Shown: one piece after another, positions 45,691 through 63,369 of the stretch
How the letters are laid out: each line of letters opens with the position of its first letter
Position numbering within the stretch: position 1 is the first letter of the stretch
From: Escherichia phage EI-SP-GF
DNA: 64,000 nt
Sequence record: OR992645.1
Strand: one strand, 5' to 3'
Position numbers and translations under genes: made by a program
The notes under the pieces: model-generated
The model's database searches: none
The model's input: the letters and a program-made list of their open reading frames with translations, nothing else
What the model was told of the DNA's origin: nothing

Positions 45691-45724
45691 AATAAAAAGG
45701 GGCCAAACGGCCCCTTTCTTTTTA
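45691..45724. terminator. bidirectional rho-independent terminator between convergent blocks
   Basis: A-tract aataaaaa, ggggcc-aaac-ggcccc hairpin, T-tract tttcttttta. Confidence 0.75.
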
Positions 45725-46339: not shown

Positions 46340-46502
46340 GACAATCTCCTCTGCTTGGTTGATGAGATAATCATATATAAATCTGGTGTTGATGTCAAGC
46401 TTAATTTTAAGCAATTTGAGAGGGTATTTTATTTAGAGAGGTAATCACACAGAGGTAGGCAGTTTATGAAGGCACAGGCCTCGTTTGAGGCCTTAAAACA
46501 GA

Positions 46503-49936: not shown

Positions 49937-51397
49937 TTACTTAGCATACTCGATTAATTCCACAGTTTTCCCAAAGCTCGGGATATAATTTTTATTATAC
50001 CCTTCAGTGAGAACCCATAAAGTATCGTACTTTTTCCACTTGTTGTCAACAGCCTTTTGTTCAAAGTTATGCTCAAAGTAGAGGTCGGTAAGGACGATGA
50101 CATCTTTTGCATTCGGTATGTTAGCATCCAGATACTCGAACACGCAGGCGGCTGTTGTGCCCCATGTTGAGTGGACCTCATAGTTGATCATCTCATCGAT
50201 GTTACCGCGAGTGTATACTTTAACCTCTCCAACCTCGGTTGACCAACAGAACATCGTAACCTTAAACTCTTTATACAAATTGCACAACCCGGTGATCTCA
50301 TTGAACATTTTCTTTAAAGTTCTTTGCGAGATCGATCCAGAAACGTCCAAAGCCACTACAATATCTATGGTGTTTTCCGGATTACGACCAGGAACAATAA
50401 TGTGTTGATTCTTGTTTATAGCTCTAACTTTTCGCATTGTGGTGGTCAAAGACCCAGATCGGCGACCAGGTTTTCTGTAGGTTAGCTCGGCCTTTCGTTT
50501 AGACAACATACGTTGCTTAATAATATCTATATAGTTGATTACAGGCTTGCCTCTGTTTTTGACAAACTCGCGCACCGCCTCAGGGCAACGACCTCCTGAA
50601 GCTTGCATTGCTGCTTCCAACATGTCACCAGAGTCCTGCATGGCCTGATCTTTATCAGATTGACTGATTACTGGTTGCGGCTGATCATACCCCATAGCCT
50701 TTCCAAGATCATCACTAGTGCCACCGTTCCCGCTCATGTGATCATCGGTTTGTCGTTTATCTCCTTGGGAGTTCTCGCCTTTACCATTCTTACTTTTACC
50801 GCTATTCTGATCTCTTTGTTTATCAAGAACTGCATAGACGTTCTCAGCAATCCATCCATGAAACTTCATGTCGCAGTAGCAATTAGCTAAGAAGCCAAAA
50901 GGCTTACCTTTTACGAACTCAGTGCTTTTCCCCTTCGGGAAGAAAACACAAGGAGGCTTGCTAAAGTCAACCACAAGACCTGTGTTGATAACGTGATCAC
51001 AAGCAATATTGAACAGTTCCGGCTCAAAGCTTTTACCACGGACCAGATGATCACAGATAATATGCCCCACCTCATGTGACAGAAGGAAGGCCACCTCTTT
51101 CACAGATTTTGGGGAATAGAAAACCTCAGCCATCTCAAACTGCTTGTCAGTCAGAGATGCTTTAAGAATGGTTTTACGCTCATCTGCCAACCCCATAATG
51201 AACTCAGGGCTGTAGTAGATGCGTTTATGGTCTGTTGCCATAGTGGAGCACCATGTGTGGTTTTCTACGAACTGCAACCCTGACAACAGTGTGCCATAAA
51301 ACGGCAGCTTTTCAAGAAGGTACATGCGAGCGGCCTGCAGCATTCGCAAGGCATCATCTTTTTGTGCGGTAATGATTTCTGAACTTCTGCTATCCAT
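49937..51397 (-). CDS. VWA-domain protein with N-terminal HExxH metallopeptidase-like domain (DUF2201-type)
   Basis: HExxH motif in LLSHEVGHIICDH; MIDAS motif DxSxS in VVALDVSGSIS; ATG 51397 with GGAG RBS preferred over 51418. Confidence 0.7.
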   Translation of the reverse strand: MDSRSSEIITAQKDDALRMLQAARMYLLEKLPFYGTLLSGLQFVENHTWCSTMATDHKRIYYSPEFIMGLADERKTILKASLTDKQFEMAEVFYSPKSVKEVAFLLSHEVGHIICDHLVRGKSFEPELFNIACDHVINTGLVVDFSKPPCVFFPKGKSTEFVKGKPFGFLANCYCDMKFHGWIAENVYAVLDKQRDQNSGKSKNGKGENSQGDKRQTDDHMSGNGGTSDDLGKAMGYDQPQPVISQSDKDQAMQDSGDMLEAAMQASGGRCPEAVREFVKNRGKPVINYIDIIKQRMLSKRKAELTYRKPGRRSGSLTTTMRKVRAINKNQHIIVPGRNPENTIDIVVALDVSGSISQRTLKKMFNEITGLCNLYKEFKVTMFCWSTEVGEVKVYTRGNIDEMINYEVHSTWGTTAACVFEYLDANIPNAKDVIVLTDLYFEHNFEQKAVDNKWKKYDTLWVLTEGYNKNYIPSFGKTVELIEYAK

Positions 51398-51430
51398 TAA
51401 AACTCCAGAAGGGGCCATTGGCCCCTGTCA

Positions 51431-52420
51431 TTATTTAACGTGCTTGAAAATACCAGCCAACTCGGTCATTGTCATGCGAGTGGTCTTCATAAGGTCTGTC
51501 ATAGCCTTCTCCATGATTGGAGATACTACCATGAAGTTACCTTTGGTGAAACCTTTGTTCCAGTCGGTAACTAATAGGGGTTTAAGTCCGGCACCGAGAC
51601 GTTCACCAGTTAAAGCACAACATTTTCGAATGTATGTGCTCTTAAACTGGCTGAATGACAGATCAACTTTCATACCTGCATCGTAGAACGTCTGGCAATA
51701 GAAAGTGTAAGCTTTGGCAATCTCAACATCGTCAGGCAGTGCAGGAACCTCTTCTGTAAGCTCTTCTTCGACCCCTTGAGGCTCTTTTTCCTCTTCGTAA
51801 GCCTGTTGCGTCATCTCTTCAATCTCCTCTACTACAGGCTCGTTTACAATGTCAGAAATGTGCTTGTTGGCTCCACGATTAGCCATGAAGTTTTTAAAAT
51901 CCTGCATTGGTGACATATCTTCCTCCCATTCTTCGTCAAAGAGTGCTAGTTTATCCTCTTCCGTTCCATATTGCAAGATGAAATCTTCAAAAGTGTAATC
52001 ACCTTTCAATTTCTCCATACGCTCTTCGCTCAGGTGGAGCATCATCTGCTGGACAATTTTTCGATCAGTTTTATCTTTAATCAGGACTGCGGTCTTTTTA
52101 TCTACCAGACAATCCTTTAGAGAGTTGCATCTCAATCCCACCACACAACAGTTATCAACCGCATAAGGACCTTCATCATCTATCCGCTCTAGAGATGGGT
52201 AGAAAGGATTTCCCAGTCCGTTTTCATCTGTGTGCATGTCGAAAGGTATAAGGGTATAGTCGCATACCCCCTCTCCTAAAAGTTTTTTACCAAATAGGAG
52301 ATATTCTTCCCATGACAGGTTGAACTCTATATCTCGTTTCCGTGCATTATTCTGTTTGCGTCTGTATTTTTTGAGCAAGCGCTCTAACTCTTCTGGTGTA
52401 TAATATTTTTCAAGATTCAT
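51431..52420 (-). CDS. HNH_3-like domain protein (degenerate HNH/AP2-type, two related modules)
   Basis: SLERIDDEGPYAVDNCCVVGLRCNSLKD and LVTDWNKGFTKGNFMVVSPIMEKAM both fit the ..ID..G.Y...N..VV.....N..K pattern; ATG 52420 with AAGAGA RBS preferred over TTG 52486; central acidic linker. Confidence 0.4.
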   Translation of the reverse strand: MNLEKYYTPEELERLLKKYRRKQNNARKRDIEFNLSWEEYLLFGKKLLGEGVCDYTLIPFDMHTDENGLGNPFYPSLERIDDEGPYAVDNCCVVGLRCNSLKDCLVDKKTAVLIKDKTDRKIVQQMMLHLSEERMEKLKGDYTFEDFILQYGTEEDKLALFDEEWEEDMSPMQDFKNFMANRGANKHISDIVNEPVVEEIEEMTQQAYEEEKEPQGVEEELTEEVPALPDDVEIAKAYTFYCQTFYDAGMKVDLSFSQFKSTYIRKCCALTGERLGAGLKPLLVTDWNKGFTKGNFMVVSPIMEKAMTDLMKTTRMTMTELAGIFKHVK

Positions 52421-52451
52421 GAGTTGTCTCTTGTTCTCTGTGGGTGGAGAA

Positions 52452-52480
52452 ATCTTACCAAGCGCCTGGGGAGATGTCAA
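52452..52480 (-). promoter_or_regulatory. leftward early promoter TTGACA-N17-TAAGAT
   Basis: on minus strand: -35 ttgaca (52480-52475), 17-nt spacer, -10 taagat (52457-52452). Confidence 0.5.
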
Positions 52481-52493
52481 CCTCAAAAACGTG

Positions 52494-52522
52494 TTGACTT
52501 TACTCTAAATCTCCGATATAGT
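52494..52522 (+). promoter_or_regulatory. rightward early promoter TTGACT-N17-TATAGT
   Basis: ttgact 52494-52499, 17-nt spacer, tatagt 52517-52522; AGGAG RBS and ATG 52563 downstream. Confidence 0.5.
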
Positions 52523-52562
52523 GCACCCATTCGAAAGAAAACTAACATAGGAGCACTTATTC

Positions 52563-53462
52563 ATGGCAAATCTTAACAGTTTTAGCACCAGGTGGCAACA
52601 GGATATAACAACCAATCTTTCAGCTGGAGATATCCTTTCTGCAATTTACGAGGCTTTGGATGATAAAGCTACTTCAAGATCGGTTTGTACTAATCCGCTA
52701 ATTCCTATGGTGATGAAGGTAATTGAGCGGAGGTTGGTATCTGGGTCCGATAAGTGGACATACCTTGATAATGGAGGGCATACTTACTCCAACGGATATG
52801 TTGATATAAAAGTGGAATACGCAGTATCATACCGCCGGAGCGGTTCTGTAACTTTCAACTTCTCTGGAGGTTTCCGATCTCTGGCAACTTCACCTTTTGT
52901 TTCCTCAGAGGAGAAGTATGAGCTGCCATTTCTTTGGATGATGGCTAACGCGACAGGAAAAACCCCCGTTAGCATCCGAGTAAAATACAACTACAACGGA
53001 TCTAGTAAGATCTATGCCGAGAGTGTCTCAGCAAGTTTTTATTTTGTGATGGGGGATGGAATCCTCAAACATATAAAGATGTGCGATATGCATGATGTTA
53101 TAAATGAAGTGACTGATAAGAATGTCCTAGTGAAAGACCTCAATAATTTTTATACACCTGGAGACTATTACGTCAACCGCCCACTGTGCATCTTTAATGC
53201 CGCACACCCTTTAGGTGAGTATTTGATCGCCAATAGCGATATTGCCAATAATCGCTTCGAGGTAGCAAGAGTACAGAATGAGGTGTTGACATCTTGCAAG
53301 AGCGGTGATAAGTTTACCGAAGAAGAGATGGGTGTTTTAGAGATGATGGGATATAAGTGTAGCCTTTGGGTAGATGAGGTGTTTAATGACGGCATCTATG
53401 GACAGGATATTTACCCACTAAAGAAGTATACTGATTCCAGTTTAATTTACGCGGAGATTTGA
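52563..53462 (+). CDS. hypothetical protein (first gene of rightward block)
   Basis: 299-aa ORF with AGGAG RBS. Confidence 0.5.
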   Translation: MANLNSFSTRWQQDITTNLSAGDILSAIYEALDDKATSRSVCTNPLIPMVMKVIERRLVSGSDKWTYLDNGGHTYSNGYVDIKVEYAVSYRRSGSVTFNFSGGFRSLATSPFVSSEEKYELPFLWMMANATGKTPVSIRVKYNYNGSSKIYAESVSASFYFVMGDGILKHIKMCDMHDVINEVTDKNVLVKDLNNFYTPGDYYVNRPLCIFNAAHPLGEYLIANSDIANNRFEVARVQNEVLTSCKSGDKFTEEEMGVLEMMGYKCSLWVDEVFNDGIYGQDIYPLKKYTDSSLIYAEI

Positions 53463-53464
53463 CT

Positions 53465-53737
53465 ATGATGAAGTCATGTGGTAGTGTATATTATGTTGGT
53501 GAGAATGTTCAGGCAGATAGTGTGTGGAAATCCATTAAGTCCACCACCGATGATGCCTTCTTGAGCGGGTTATGTTTCCCCAATCCTGGGGACATTCTCC
53601 CTCACCCTGGGGATTTTGTTGTCAACAAGACAGACGGTTATACCGTGTGCCTGATGGTTGAAAAAATCTTTTTAGACACTAGACACAATCACCGTCTTGT
53701 GCTAAAATTTCAAGAATGTAAAATGACAGTTGCCTAA
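53465..53737 (+). CDS. hypothetical protein
   Basis: ORF in track starts TTG 53459; ATG 53465 with GGAG RBS. Confidence 0.45.
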   Translation: MMKSCGSVYYVGENVQADSVWKSIKSTTDDAFLSGLCFPNPGDILPHPGDFVVNKTDGYTVCLMVEKIFLDTRHNHRLVLKFQECKMTVA

Positions 53738-54761: not shown

Positions 54762-55055
54762 ATGCCGCTTAGAAGAGTAATAAACATGTTATACCAGAAA
54801 CACGAACTTTGTGCAGAAAAAGAGTTAAATTTTGACAAAGTTATCCACAGATATTGTTACGGGAAAACCGGAAGATACCTAAAAAGGTGGACTCCAGCAT
54901 TCTTTCACCCCAGCAGGAGACTAAGCCCTGAAGAAGCAACAGCAGAAAGGGTTGCATACAACTGGGAAGTTGTGTACGATATTGACAGATCCGATGTGAC
55001 ATCTGTTTTGGAAAACTTTGAAAACACTTACACACAAGTAGAGGACTTTTACTAA
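54762..55055 (+). CDS. hypothetical protein
   Basis: ORF in track starts GTG 54750; ATG 54762 with GGTGG RBS. Confidence 0.45.
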   Translation: MPLRRVINMLYQKHELCAEKELNFDKVIHRYCYGKTGRYLKRWTPAFFHPSRRLSPEEATAERVAYNWEVVYDIDRSDVTSVLENFENTYTQVEDFY

Positions 55056-56239
55056 TGTCAAGAAACGTATTTGAAAGTGGTCAAATCACTGTCCGTGAGT
55101 TGCCAGCTATTATTCAGTTTGCCCAGCGTCATAACCGATCTGTCCTGATTTTAGGACCAATGGGCGTGGGTAAGAGCCAGGTGATGAAGCAGATTGCCGA
55201 TAATATGTTCGGTGAGCGAGATGACAACCTGGTTGACGTGCGACTGTCAGATAAAGATCCTGCCGACTTATCTGGGCTACCTATCCCTGTAGAAGCGGAT
55301 GGAACTACACGTACAGTGTTTGCAATTCCAGAATTTTGGCCTTCGGATCCGGACTGGAGCGGAATTATCTTTCTGGATGAGCTTACTCATGCAGATAATT
55401 ACCTGCAAAAGGTTGCAATGCAGATTATGCTCGACCACAAGTGCGGCACCTATGCATTCCCTAAAGGCTCTGTTTTTGTGGCTGCGGGTAACCGTTCTAC
55501 AGATGGTGCGGTTCTTTCGGCGCTCGAAGCTCCTCTGGCTAACCGCTTTATCATTGTAGAGGTTACAAGCAATGCAGAGGTGTTTATTGAGGACTACGCA
55601 TTCCTTAATGGGGTGCATTCCTCTGTAATTGGATATCTGAAAAGAGTTCCATCAGCTATCGATAATTATGAGGCTATGGCTGAGATTAATTGTCCATCTT
55701 TTGCCACACCGCGATCTTGGGTTGCTGCATCTGATATCTTGCACGATTTTGACAGCGGTATTATTTCTGACGCTATGGCCCGTGTTCTTCTGCAAGGTGC
55801 TATTGGTCACACTGCAGCGGTAGAGATCTGGACCTACCACACCAAGAAACGCAACTTACCGGAAATCGGTCGGATTATGGCAGGTGGTTGCAAAGAATAC
55901 GTAGGTCCTAAGCAGCCAGACATCTTGTGGATTCTTGGATCTGAAGGTTGTATCGCTATTCGTAATATGATGGAAAATGCAAGTATCTCTGACGAAGATC
56001 TTGTCAGCTGCGTGGCAAACTTCCTCGATTTCCTTTGGGAAAACTTCAAGGACGAGAACCGAGATTTTGTATTCTCAGTCTTTATGGCGATGATGAAACC
56101 TAACGCCTTAGGAAATGCCTTGCTTATCGGTAAAGGGCGTGACAAGATCGTTGCTCAACTGATCAAAGCGTACCCAAACCTGATGAAGATTGTAAAAGAG
56201 TTTGGTGAAGAGTTTAGCGCCATTTTAGCTAAAGCTTGA
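55055..56239 (+). CDS. MoxR-type AAA+ ATPase
   Basis: Walker A GPMGVGKS, Walker B IIFLDEL, sensor-1 AAGN and Arg-finger-like ANRF. Confidence 0.75.
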   Translation: MSRNVFESGQITVRELPAIIQFAQRHNRSVLILGPMGVGKSQVMKQIADNMFGERDDNLVDVRLSDKDPADLSGLPIPVEADGTTRTVFAIPEFWPSDPDWSGIIFLDELTHADNYLQKVAMQIMLDHKCGTYAFPKGSVFVAAGNRSTDGAVLSALEAPLANRFIIVEVTSNAEVFIEDYAFLNGVHSSVIGYLKRVPSAIDNYEAMAEINCPSFATPRSWVAASDILHDFDSGIISDAMARVLLQGAIGHTAAVEIWTYHTKKRNLPEIGRIMAGGCKEYVGPKQPDILWILGSEGCIAIRNMMENASISDEDLVSCVANFLDFLWENFKDENRDFVFSVFMAMMKPNALGNALLIGKGRDKIVAQLIKAYPNLMKIVKEFGEEFSAILAKA

Positions 56240-56643: not shown

Positions 56644-56671
56644 CCCCGCTTCGGCGGGGATTTTCTATTTG
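56644..56671 (+). terminator. rho-independent terminator (UUCG-loop hairpin)
   Basis: ccccgc-ttcg-gcgggg followed by attttctattt. Confidence 0.6.
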
Positions 56672-60375: not shown

Positions 60376-61745
60376 TGGAAAAAGGGCAGTACGATGTAGG
60401 CACAGATGCTGCCCTTGTTGCAATCATGAGTGGTGAGAATGTCTTCGTAAGTGGACCTGGTGGAACCGGGAAGACATATCTTATCAACATGATCCAGTCC
60501 ATGTATGGAGACTCTTGCATAACGGTTGCCCCGACAGGGGTAGCCGCTTTAAACGTTAATGGAGCAACAGCGCACCGAACTTTCGATCTTGCCGCAGGTG
60601 TGAGCATGGAGTCAGACTGGACAGCAATAAGGGCAAAAACAGCAAAGCCTCTGAAAAGCAAGGCATTTACCATCCTAATTATCGATGAAATTTCTATGAT
60701 CCGTGCTGACAAGTTCATAGAGATGGATAGAAAACTCCGCTTTCTTCGGAAAAATGACAAACCTTTCGGGGGCATTCAGGTGTTATTGTTTGGAGATTTC
60801 TACCAAGCACCTCCGGTTGTCTCTTCTATGGAGAAGGAAGCCTACTTCAACTTCTACCACACAGATCTGTGTTGCTATACAGAGTCTTGGGAGGATCTTA
60901 ATCTTCACAATATAGCTTTAGTAGACCAGTTCCGTCAGGAATCTGTTCGCTTCGCCACAATGTTGAACTGTGTTCGTGAAGGTCGTCGCATAAAAGAGGT
61001 TGTAGCAGAGCTTAACACTCGTTGCTATCATGGTGGTGTCCCAACCGATGCCTTGACCATCTGTGCCACCAATAAGCAAGCAGAAGAGGTGAACAGACGT
61101 TTCTATGATGCCATCAAGGCCCCAGAGAAGACCTACATTGGTAAAATGAAAGGTAAGTTCCCCTCCACACTACCTGTGGAGCAGGAAATGAGGCTGAAGA
61201 TAGGGATGAAGGTTATGATAACCTCAAACGATGTTGACCCGACACACAAAGTTCCGTACTATGTCAACGGGACACGCGCCACAGTGGTAAAATTCAAGAC
61301 CAAGTCTGTGGTGGTTGAGCTGGAAGACGGGACACAGGTTGAAATCGAGCCGAGATTGTGGGAGAATAACGAGTACAAACCTTCCCAGAGGTACAATATT
61401 GCCGAAAGGAAGATGGAGAAGTTCATAGAGAGGGTTGTGATCGGGTCTTATGAGCAACTTCCTTTGAAATCTGGGTACGCAGTAACATCGCATAAAAGTC
61501 AAGGACTTACGTTAGATTGTTACAACCTAGACCTCGGAAAGAACGGAGCTTTCTCTCCCGGAATGACGTATGTTGCCTTGAGTCGGGTTAAGACGATACA
61601 AGGAATAAACTTGTTGCGTCCATTAAGAGAGGTGGATATTATTGTTGACCCGAGAGTCGTAGAGTTTTATAATACAACTTTCCCTGGCTTAGACGAGAAA
61701 GTCAGGAAAGATTTTGAAACTAGAGCAGAAAAGGGGGACGTATGA
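60375..61745 (+). CDS. SF1B DNA helicase (Dda / PIF1 / RecD-like)
   Basis: Walker A VSGPGGTGKT, Walker B ILIIDEISM, C-terminal YAVTSHKSQGLTLD motif. Confidence 0.75.
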   Translation: MEKGQYDVGTDAALVAIMSGENVFVSGPGGTGKTYLINMIQSMYGDSCITVAPTGVAALNVNGATAHRTFDLAAGVSMESDWTAIRAKTAKPLKSKAFTILIIDEISMIRADKFIEMDRKLRFLRKNDKPFGGIQVLLFGDFYQAPPVVSSMEKEAYFNFYHTDLCCYTESWEDLNLHNIALVDQFRQESVRFATMLNCVREGRRIKEVVAELNTRCYHGGVPTDALTICATNKQAEEVNRRFYDAIKAPEKTYIGKMKGKFPSTLPVEQEMRLKIGMKVMITSNDVDPTHKVPYYVNGTRATVVKFKTKSVVVELEDGTQVEIEPRLWENNEYKPSQRYNIAERKMEKFIERVVIGSYEQLPLKSGYAVTSHKSQGLTLDCYNLDLGKNGAFSPGMTYVALSRVKTIQGINLLRPLREVDIIVDPRVVEFYNTTFPGLDEKVRKDFETRAEKGDV

Positions 61746-62083
61746 GTTTGTGGAGAAATATAGTTAACTACGTGTGCGGTAATCCAAATCCTGAAGAGAA
61801 GGATGTTGTGATTCACGATTTTACTAAAAGATCTCGTGAAAAAGACCTCCTGCTAACAAAGGTGATCGATAAAGACCCTGCAGTAGGAGATTGGGCAGGT
61901 TTTGCGTTTACATCTGACAAATACACCTTTAACAAAGGTGACTACCTTGTTGTGGATTTTAACGAAGACATCGAGGGTGCTGAACCTTACTATCAGACCC
62001 TTATCGTTGCAGAGTGTGTTGAGCTCTCTGCAAACATGCACAGTTTGATTCTTTTTGAGCTTGACTCTGAAGACCTTCAGTAG
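61742..62083 (+). CDS. hypothetical protein
   Basis: 113 aa, ATGA overlap with helicase gene. Confidence 0.5.
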   Translation: MSLWRNIVNYVCGNPNPEEKDVVIHDFTKRSREKDLLLTKVIDKDPAVGDWAGFAFTSDKYTFNKGDYLVVDFNEDIEGAEPYYQTLIVAECVELSANMHSLILFELDSEDLQ

Positions 62084-62143
62084 TAAGATGTGAGTCTAAA
62101 GGGGAGGCACTCCTCCCCACAAAAACTAAGGAAGCACTAAACG

Positions 62144-62446
62144 ATGAAACGTTATAAACCATACACTTTTGAAATCGATTTCGAACTTGACGATATGTTT
62201 ACTGTGGAAGCTCAGGCAGTTGTCCAGTTGCCAGACCCGGAGTGCCGTGATTCTGATGTTGACTATTACGGATTTAGACAAATTACCGATGTGCATGTTT
62301 ACCACAACGGTGAAGAGGTGAACTTCCACCAACTGCCAAACGATATGCGCCACTCAATTTACAAACGTGCAGCCCGTGAACTAGAGTCCTATCTGGATGC
62401 AGCGACGACAGCAGCTGCGTTTGCGGAAGAAGTAGGAGGTTTCTGA
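62144..62446 (+). CDS. hypothetical protein
   Basis: 100 aa, AAGGA RBS. Confidence 0.5.
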   Translation: MKRYKPYTFEIDFELDDMFTVEAQAVVQLPDPECRDSDVDYYGFRQITDVHVYHNGEEVNFHQLPNDMRHSIYKRAARELESYLDAATTAAAFAEEVGGF

Positions 62447-63336: not shown

Positions 63337-63342
63337 CACTAG

Positions 63343-63369
63343 GCCCTGCCCGAAAGGGTGGGGCTTTTT
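63343..63369 (+). terminator. hairpin with GNRA (GAAA) loop plus T-tract
   Basis: ccctgccc-gaaa-gggtgggg (with G-U pairs) followed by ctttttg. Confidence 0.45.

Follow-up and report, generated by a model that had tools for sequence, protein, structure and literature searches.

Back-to-back sigma-70-type promoters at a divergent junction of rV5-like phages: selective conservation, membership of a genome-wide promoter class and fixed spacing across genera

The closest described counterpart of the locus studied here belongs to phage rV5, for which four transcriptional units have been proposed (Kropinski et al. 2013, Virol J 10:76, PMC3606486). Table S4 of that paper includes the promoters P010 and P011, both predicted from sequence alone (PMC3606486), and the RefSeq entry NC_011041 carries P11 as a regulatory feature. 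In our window, i.e. the whole stretch of 64,000 nucleotides that was analysed, we found a promoter pair with the same locus, flanking genes and architecture. The rV5 promoter P010, CAAAAACGTG-TTGACT-TTACTCTAAATCTCCGA-TATAGT-GCACCCA, is base for base the sequence at window positions 52484-52529. P011 shares TTGACA, the N17 spacing and TGn with the leftward promoter of the window but differs in reading TCTGTTGAGACAATTGA-TACGAT where the window has TCTCCCCAGGCGCTTGG-TAAGAT. Because the same pair was described in rV5 in 2013, the divergent promoters are a known and ordinary feature of rV5-like phages. Our search of the literature on Vequintavirinae found no start-site map, no RNA-seq or other transcriptome data and no reporter data.

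Several other systems are comparable in part. In Salmonella phage PVP-SE1 (GU070616), a promoter with TTGACA-N17-GATAAT is annotated at the homologous position, before the 'anti-sigma factor' gene 218; this annotation is a sequence prediction, as is that of rV5 P011. Its divergent partner, TTGATT-N17-TATGCT, carries no annotation, and the two -35 hexamers are separated there by 3 bp, against 13 bp here. For Certrevirus, a putative early promoter consensus AAAA(N3-4)TGTTGAC(N17-19)TATAAT has been published (Buttimer et al. 2020, PMC7344957). The A-tract, the T at -2, the G at -1 and a TTGACA-type hexamer are common to this consensus, to the rightward promoter and to the genome-wide logo of phage EmilHeitz described below. 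The consensus was, however, defined in another genus on 13 sites per genome, and the leftward promoter of our pair has a T-tract in place of the A-tract.

Bacterial divergent promoters, back-to-back pairs included, were reportedly classified by Beck and Warren in 1988. Such bacterial pairs have, like the pair here, non-overlapping core promoters, outward transcription and common upstream DNA; in many of them a site for a regulator separates or overlaps the promoters, whereas none was detectable at our locus. The lambda PR/PRM switch likewise places divergent promoters within about 100 bp, but it has operators and a repressor, whereas this virulent phage shows no operator repeats and no repressor gene at the pair. 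Bidirectional promoters that arise from symmetry of the -10 element, with starts about 18 bp apart, are said to have been described by Warman et al. in 2021. These also initiate divergently from one short region. They share a single -10 region, however, whereas here there are two full promoters, with -10 hexamers 59 bp apart and predicted starts separated by 84 bp.

The window is Vequintavirus (rV5-like) phage DNA, about 97% identical to published phages. The 6-kb stretch around the promoter pair matched 121 phage records at 90-97% identity, nearly all of them Escherichia phages of the genus Vequintavirus (rV5, FV3, EmilHeitz, ECP26 and others). The 241 bases around the pair were 98.8% identical to EmilHeitz and 91.2% identical to rV5. 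The interval 52421-52562 (142 bp) exactly fills the space from the leftward ATG (52420) to the rightward ATG (52563), and it is the sole divergent intergenic region within the window. In annotated relatives its counterpart is also intergenic, with the homologs of rV5 gp11 and gp10 on either side.

Direct reading of the sequence and a consensus scan both bore out the two divergent promoters of the original prediction, with the same hexamers, N17 spacers and a 13-bp gap. On the minus strand, the leftward promoter (the homolog of rV5 P011) has its -35 hexamer TTGACA at 52480..52475 and, after a 17-nt spacer, the -10 hexamer TAAGAT at 52457..52452. Since the spacer ends in TGg (52460..52458), this is an extended -10 promoter. 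On the plus strand, the rightward promoter (identical to rV5 P010) has TTGACT at 52494..52499 and, again after 17 nt, TATAGT at 52517..52522. The 13 bp between the -35 hexamers, CCTCAAAAACGTG at 52481..52493, hold an A-tract and a TG that form the upstream part of the arrangement AAAA-N3-TGTTGAC of the rightward promoter. Against the sigma-70 consensus, the -35 hexamers matched at 6/6 (leftward) and 5/6 (rightward) positions and the -10 hexamers at 4/6, plus the TGn, and 5/6 positions respectively. Both promoters show a -35 match, a -10 match with A2 and T6, spacing within 16-18 bp and a position from which they read into a gene.

The usual distance of 7 nt past the -10 hexamer predicts a leftward start at 52445 (-), with a 24-nt leader to the ATG at 52420, and a rightward start at the A at 52529 (+), with a 34-nt leader (52529..52562) that contains the Shine-Dalgarno sequence AGGAG at 52549-52553. 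The distance from start to start would be 84 bp. A second leftward site, TTGCCA-N17-TGtTAAGAT (9/12), lies inside the coding start of gp10 at 52598..52570 and was rejected because its -35 hexamer differs in FV3 and ECP32.

We aligned the junction in 18 sequences: 14 of Vequintavirus type, the window included, and four contigs from metagenomes that belong to a sister clade. Protein identity to that clade was 64-67% for gp11 and 28% for gp10. Both -35 hexamers were unchanged in 18/18 sequences (12/12 columns), and both spacers measured N17 throughout the alignment. The leftward TGn was kept in all 18, as were T1, A2 and T6 of both -10 hexamers. The -10 hexamers varied, with TAAGAT, TACGAT, TAGTGT and TAATGT on the leftward side and TATAGT, TACAGT and TATTCT on the rightward side; in some relatives the leftward -10 is weak (TAGTGT, CAGAAT) and there reliant on the TGn. 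By contrast, the spacers had diverged, with 0/14 and 2/17 invariant columns among the 18 and with identities of 12% and 32% between the window and the sister clade. The A-tract in the gap between the -35 hexamers was kept in 18/18, the gap measuring 13 bp in 16 sequences and 14 bp in two. Conserved hexamers with diverged spacers are the footprint that would be expected of functional sigma-70 promoters, and its strength comes mainly from one diverged clade (4 sequences) and from more distant genera, since identity within the genus is 83-99%. From sequence and conservation together, the pair is real and very probably functional.

The leftward spacer (52458-52474) exists in two versions within the genus. 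A GC-rich one, TCTCCCCAGGCGCTTGG, is found in the window and in EmilHeitz (in ECP32 with one base different), and an AT-rich one, TCTGTTGAGACAATTGA, in the rV5-type phages; the -35 hexamer and the TGn are kept across this swap. The two versions could have arisen by replacement of this segment, or they could serve to tune the strength of the promoter.

Next to conservation, we quantified how often such sites occur by chance. At a threshold of at least 9/12 matches the scan gave 41 promoter-like sites in the window against 33.5 +/- 5.3 in shuffled sequence, which is barely an enrichment. At a threshold of at least 10/12 it gave 34 sites, against 16.1 +/- 4.1 expected from 200 dinucleotide-preserving shuffles. 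Just 4% of the shuffled 64-kb windows contained, at any position, two back-to-back sites separated by 40 bp or less. The promoter pair is not a chance occurrence.

The promoters were then set against the genome-wide distribution of such sites. For this, the complete EmilHeitz genome was assembled and scanned for sigma-70 sites with at least 10/12 matches. The non-structural blocks held 81 co-directional and 9 antisense sites (binomial p = 1.3e-15), about 0.9 per kb; the 47.7-kb structural block held 10 co-directional and 9 antisense sites. This strand bias is consistent with promoters for the host polymerase all along the early/middle half and with another mechanism for late transcription. The logo of about 80 co-directional sites showed a near-perfect TTGACA, frequently a TG before the -10 hexamer and, upstream of the -35 hexamer, an A-tract from -9 to -5, a T at -2 and a G or C at -1. 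It equals the Certrevirus consensus (PMC7344957). The rightward promoter fits this class fully (AAAA-ACG-TGTTGAC-T-N17-TATAGT), so the 13-bp gap supplies its upstream A-tract; the leftward one lacks the A-tract but otherwise conforms. Both are co-oriented with the downstream genes of a non-structural block, and both arms of the window hold further promoter-like sites. In a leave-one-out ranking by position weight matrix (PWM), the leftward promoter came 23rd and the rightward one 37th among the 81 co-directional sites. Both promoters are ordinary members of the class and not a master switch, and the idea that they form a special compact control region finds no support beyond the adjacency of two promoters.

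Taken together, we consider it quite likely that the divergent early junction consists of two independent, constitutive host sigma-70 promoters placed back to back. Host sigma-70 RNA polymerase would recognise both of them, and they would fire once the DNA enters the cell. The predicted leftward transcript would begin at about 52445 and run through the genes for the Srd-like and DUF2201 proteins and then about 14 small ones to the terminator at 45694-45719. The predicted rightward transcript would begin at about 52529 and take in gp10, the five small genes after it, the MoxR-like ATPase and a sixth small gene; past the MoxR region lie the terminator-like hairpin at 56644 and, presumably, additional internal promoters. 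Neither a dedicated repressor nor an operator would act at the pair, and if the promoters are silenced later, this would happen by a global route, either phage takeover of host transcription or mRNA turnover. Initiation itself, its start sites, its early timing and the extent of the transcripts are predictions of this explanation, whereas the sequence elements, their non-random occurrence, their selective conservation and their place in a strand-biased promoter class are seen directly in the sequences. That divergent sigma-70-type promoters start two opposite units, as had originally been proposed, is very probable from sequence and conservation.

On the leftward side, that proposal had a block of small ORFs transcribed. 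This stands for the later part of the unit, with about 14 small genes, but its first genes are larger, coding for the Srd-like protein of 329 aa and the DUF2201 protein of 486-493 aa. The first of them, the homolog of rV5 gp11 (51431..52420, minus strand), resembles Srd in its N-terminal part. Its label varies by record among 'anti-sigma factor', 'HNH endonuclease' (RefSeq) and 'anti-termination'. In PHROG, the best family was phrog_3118, labelled HNH endonuclease; there was also weak similarity to 'Srd anti-sigma factor' (E 4.5e-10, residues 13-191) and to 'decoy of host sigma70' (E 2.7e-12), the latter confined to N-terminal residues 13-107. No Pfam or NCBIfam family matched the protein, and a PDB profile search with the gp11 family came back empty. 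The family has invariant Cys/Asp/Tyr/Thr motifs (GxGxCDYT). The 'anti-sigma factor' label next to the promoters goes back to weak N-terminal similarity to T4 Srd. Passages in PMC13232886 and PMC4980113, citing Qi et al. 2015, give the demonstrated activity of T4 Srd as binding to RNase E together with stimulation of host mRNA decay. Such an activity would fit an early host-takeover gene and not a regulator of these promoters.

Between the gp11 stop codon and the start of the gp12 homolog there is a GC-rich hairpin with a 7-bp stem, AGGGGCC-AAT-GGCCCCT (51410..51426, minus strand). It has a weak T-tail on the transcribed strand, and some records start gp12 at an ATG in its loop; the hairpin could act in attenuation or affect the stability of the mRNA. 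The second leftward gene, the homolog of rV5 gp12 (49937..51397, minus strand), starts at 51397 after GGAG. Its Pfam matches were limited to DUF2201, namely the metallopeptidase-like DUF2201_N (E 1.8e-28) and the VWA-like DUF2201 (E 3.5e-11). The about 14 small genes with which the unit continues showed no recognisable domains, and the small ORFs had no Pfam family. The unit has at least one conserved internal leftward promoter, TTGACA-N17-TATGAT, which lies in an intergenic position at 46398..46370 (minus strand) and is the homolog of rV5 P025. Its hexamers are kept in rV5 and EmilHeitz while its spacer has changed, and no ortholog aligned in the FV3 locus. A bidirectional terminator hairpin at 45694..45719 ends both the leftward unit and the converging structural-gene unit.

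On the rightward side, the first gene is the homolog of rV5 gp10 (52563..53462, plus strand; 299 aa), labelled 'putative alpha 1-3 fucosyltransferase'. It matched neither a Pfam nor an NCBIfam family, and its PHROG, 12338, has no assigned function, so that the fucosyltransferase label is unsupported. gp10 evolves much faster than gp11, with 28% versus 67% identity in the sister clade. After gp10 come five small genes, the MoxR-like ATPase (55055-56239) and then a single small gene. At a distance of about 4.1 kb downstream from the rightward promoter, a consensus scan alone gave a terminator-like hairpin with a T-rich tail, CCCCGCTTCGGCGGGG (56644..56659, plus strand), between the MoxR-region genes and the hydrolase, rIIA and helicase genes. 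Beyond it lie the cell-wall hydrolase, rIIA, rIIB and helicase genes with several further promoter-like sites, and there is a strong terminator at 63341-63366. The rightward promoter had been thought to drive the whole block from MoxR to methyltransferase. This is tenable for the MoxR region, but because of the hairpin at 56644-56659 the promoter alone is probably not the driver of the entire block.

MoxR ATPases usually work with VWA partners. The MoxR-like AAA+ ATPase (55055-56239) and the DUF2201 VWA-like/metallopeptidase protein (49937-51397) lie on opposite arms of the junction. Because of the usual pairing, the divergent junction may co-express a two-part MoxR/VWA system.

The independence of the two promoters has one finding against it: the geometry of the pair is fixed across genera, which hints at some interplay. 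Roughly 200 Vequintavirinae genomes carry a gp11 homolog. In Seunavirus, Mydovirus, Henunavirus, Avunavirus and unclassified relatives, where this homolog is 37-47% identical, it is likewise preceded by a back-to-back pair. These distant junctions came from Seunavirus PVP-SE1, 4MG and EspYZU12, Mydovirus Seu621, Henunavirus Hena1 and SNUABM01, Avunavirus Av-05, TH18 and another 13 contigs from IMG/VR, several of them identical with genomes of phages already named. Their leftward promoters read TTGACA-N16/17-(TGn)nATAAT-like and their rightward ones TTGAnn-N16/17-TAnnnT, with just 3 or 4 bp between the -35 hexamers. The leftward -35 was TTGACA in 21/22 distant-genus junctions. The exception, TTGACT, came from Serratia phage Kashira, whose divergent junction is located elsewhere, not flanking the gp11 homolog, and has the core AGTCAA-CAC-TTGAAA. 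The distance from -10 to -10 was 48-49 bp at the Seunavirus, Mydovirus, Henunavirus, Avunavirus and unclassified loci examined and 59-60 bp in all 18 Vequintavirus-type sequences, one helical turn more. Where a distant genus had an N16 spacer, the -35 gap was usually 4 bp and not 3 bp. The fixed, helically phased spacing across genera is the only point here that goes beyond published work.

EmilHeitz has a second divergent junction outside the window (record positions 134700-134860), with RNA ligase leftward and polynucleotide kinase rightward and with the back-to-back core TGTCAA-CAC-TTGAAA. The rightward promoter there is rV5 P081, and a leftward partner, TTGACA-N17-TGgCAGGAT, is also present. 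The rV5 paper reported no bidirectional pair at the P081 junction (PMC3606486).

Such spacing raises the question of whether the two promoters form a coupled module, with a geometry that would let two polymerases bind on one face of the helix. Coupling could act by competition for shared upstream DNA or alpha-CTD contacts, by mutual activation through divergent negative supercoiling, by cooperative loading or by joint shut-off through one factor. The constancy of the two -10 distances with a one-turn difference between them speaks for it, as do the usual offsetting of an N16 spacer by a gap of 4 instead of 3 bp and the recurrence of the TGTCAA-CAC-TTGAAA core at the second EmilHeitz junction. 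The start-to-start distances point the same way, since the predicted values, 84 bp at this locus and about 74 bp in the other genera, would be 8 and 7 turns. Yet the 10-bp difference may be a single insertion that supplied the A-tract of the rightward promoter, i.e. one event on which no statistics are possible, and a short constant gap may just mirror the rarity of indels. Moreover, symmetry and conservation do not extend beyond the promoter-class consensus. We regard coupling as unlikely, if still worth keeping in mind. If it were true, it would synchronise the two early arms, of which one carries the MoxR ATPase and the other the VWA-like protein that is probably its partner, and a functional role of the fixed spacing would be a modest addition to what is known of divergent promoter coupling.

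Independent firing of the two promoters also has to be weighed against a regulated switch, for which the region was searched in several ways. Over 52380-52620, the search for direct and inverted repeats gave just two short two-copy matches and a palindrome within the gp11 coding sequence. The 9-11-mers of the junction region occurred elsewhere in the window 1.5-1.7-fold over the expectation from uniform composition, with no recurring motif and nothing clearly above chance. The 14-mer TGTCAACACTTGAA, which occurs twice in EmilHeitz (at the second divergent junction and inside a tail-fibre gene), was set aside as coincidence, because the window does not contain it even when 2 mismatches are allowed. 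Rfam returned no match at E<=1 over 51400-53600, and the leaders and the whole intergenic region fold no better than shuffled sequences (z = +1.05, -0.74, -1.01, -0.42). A Pfam search for DNA-binding domains recognised none in the 19 flanking ORFs.

In a switch, both promoters would be turned off or on jointly by a DNA-binding protein, from phage or host, whose gene lies outside the window, with either the inverted repeat of the -35 region, GTCAAC-N11-GTTGAC, or the rightward leader as operator. The repeat is indeed perfect over 6 bp, and with at most one mismatch it has 2 matches in the window against 0.17 expected; its symmetry is, however, fully explained by two copies of the class motif (G/C)TTGAC. 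The rightward discriminator and leader are invariant or nearly so within the genus, but the leader has diverged in the sister clade and is no better kept in the genus than the adjoining coding sequence. A 'putative transcriptional regulator', EmilHeitz bas49_0218, is encoded outside the window. Against this stand the k-mers of the region, not clearly above chance elsewhere in the window, the lack of repeats in the region and of DNA-binding domains in the flanking ORFs, and the virulent nature of the phage. Operator sites overlapping the promoters and an adjacent repressor gene, as in a lambda-like switch, were both lacking at the locus. We therefore hold a switch of this kind to be very improbable. 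The earlier statement that neither a repressor gene nor operator repeats accompany the pair agrees with these searches, in which no operator-like repeat beyond the -35 symmetry was found. A virulent myovirus has no need of a repressor at its early promoters, so that the lack of one is unremarkable, and the control from outside the window or by promoter competition that had been suggested instead is speculative.

That the consensus matches arose by chance and have no promoter function is scarcely credible, since the near-background count at 9/12 (41 sites versus 33.5 +/- 5.3) is outweighed by the rarity of back-to-back pairs in shuffled windows (4%), by the selective keeping of hexamers and spacing across genera while the spacers diverged, and by the 81:9 strand bias of the promoter class.

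The comparative evidence, lacking in the 2013 paper, confirms that two real host-type promoters, kept by selection, sit at the rV5-type junction. More broadly, the non-structural half of these therapeutic-candidate phages carries dense, directional host-type promoters. This may be of use for annotation, for strong phage promoters as parts and for the design of transcript mapping, although the practical weight is small.

Some observations concern the records and the surrounding genome. Sixteen 'Campylobacter phage' records (MG0656xx, host C. jejuni) were about 94.5% identical to the window over 6 kb, and six rows among the matches listed are records of this kind; the C. jejuni host label looks doubtful. 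In EmilHeitz, a 1035-bp putative N6-adenine methyltransferase gene, bas49_0070, sits between the homologs of the ORFs at 62144-62446 and 61742-62083, where the window has only a 60-bp gap (62083-62144). The EmilHeitz record also has about 2.4 kb devoid of annotated genes (94636-97081, outside the window) at the convergent junction of two large non-structural blocks, and this gene-free stretch is the counterpart of the 'non-coding' box on the rV5 genome map.
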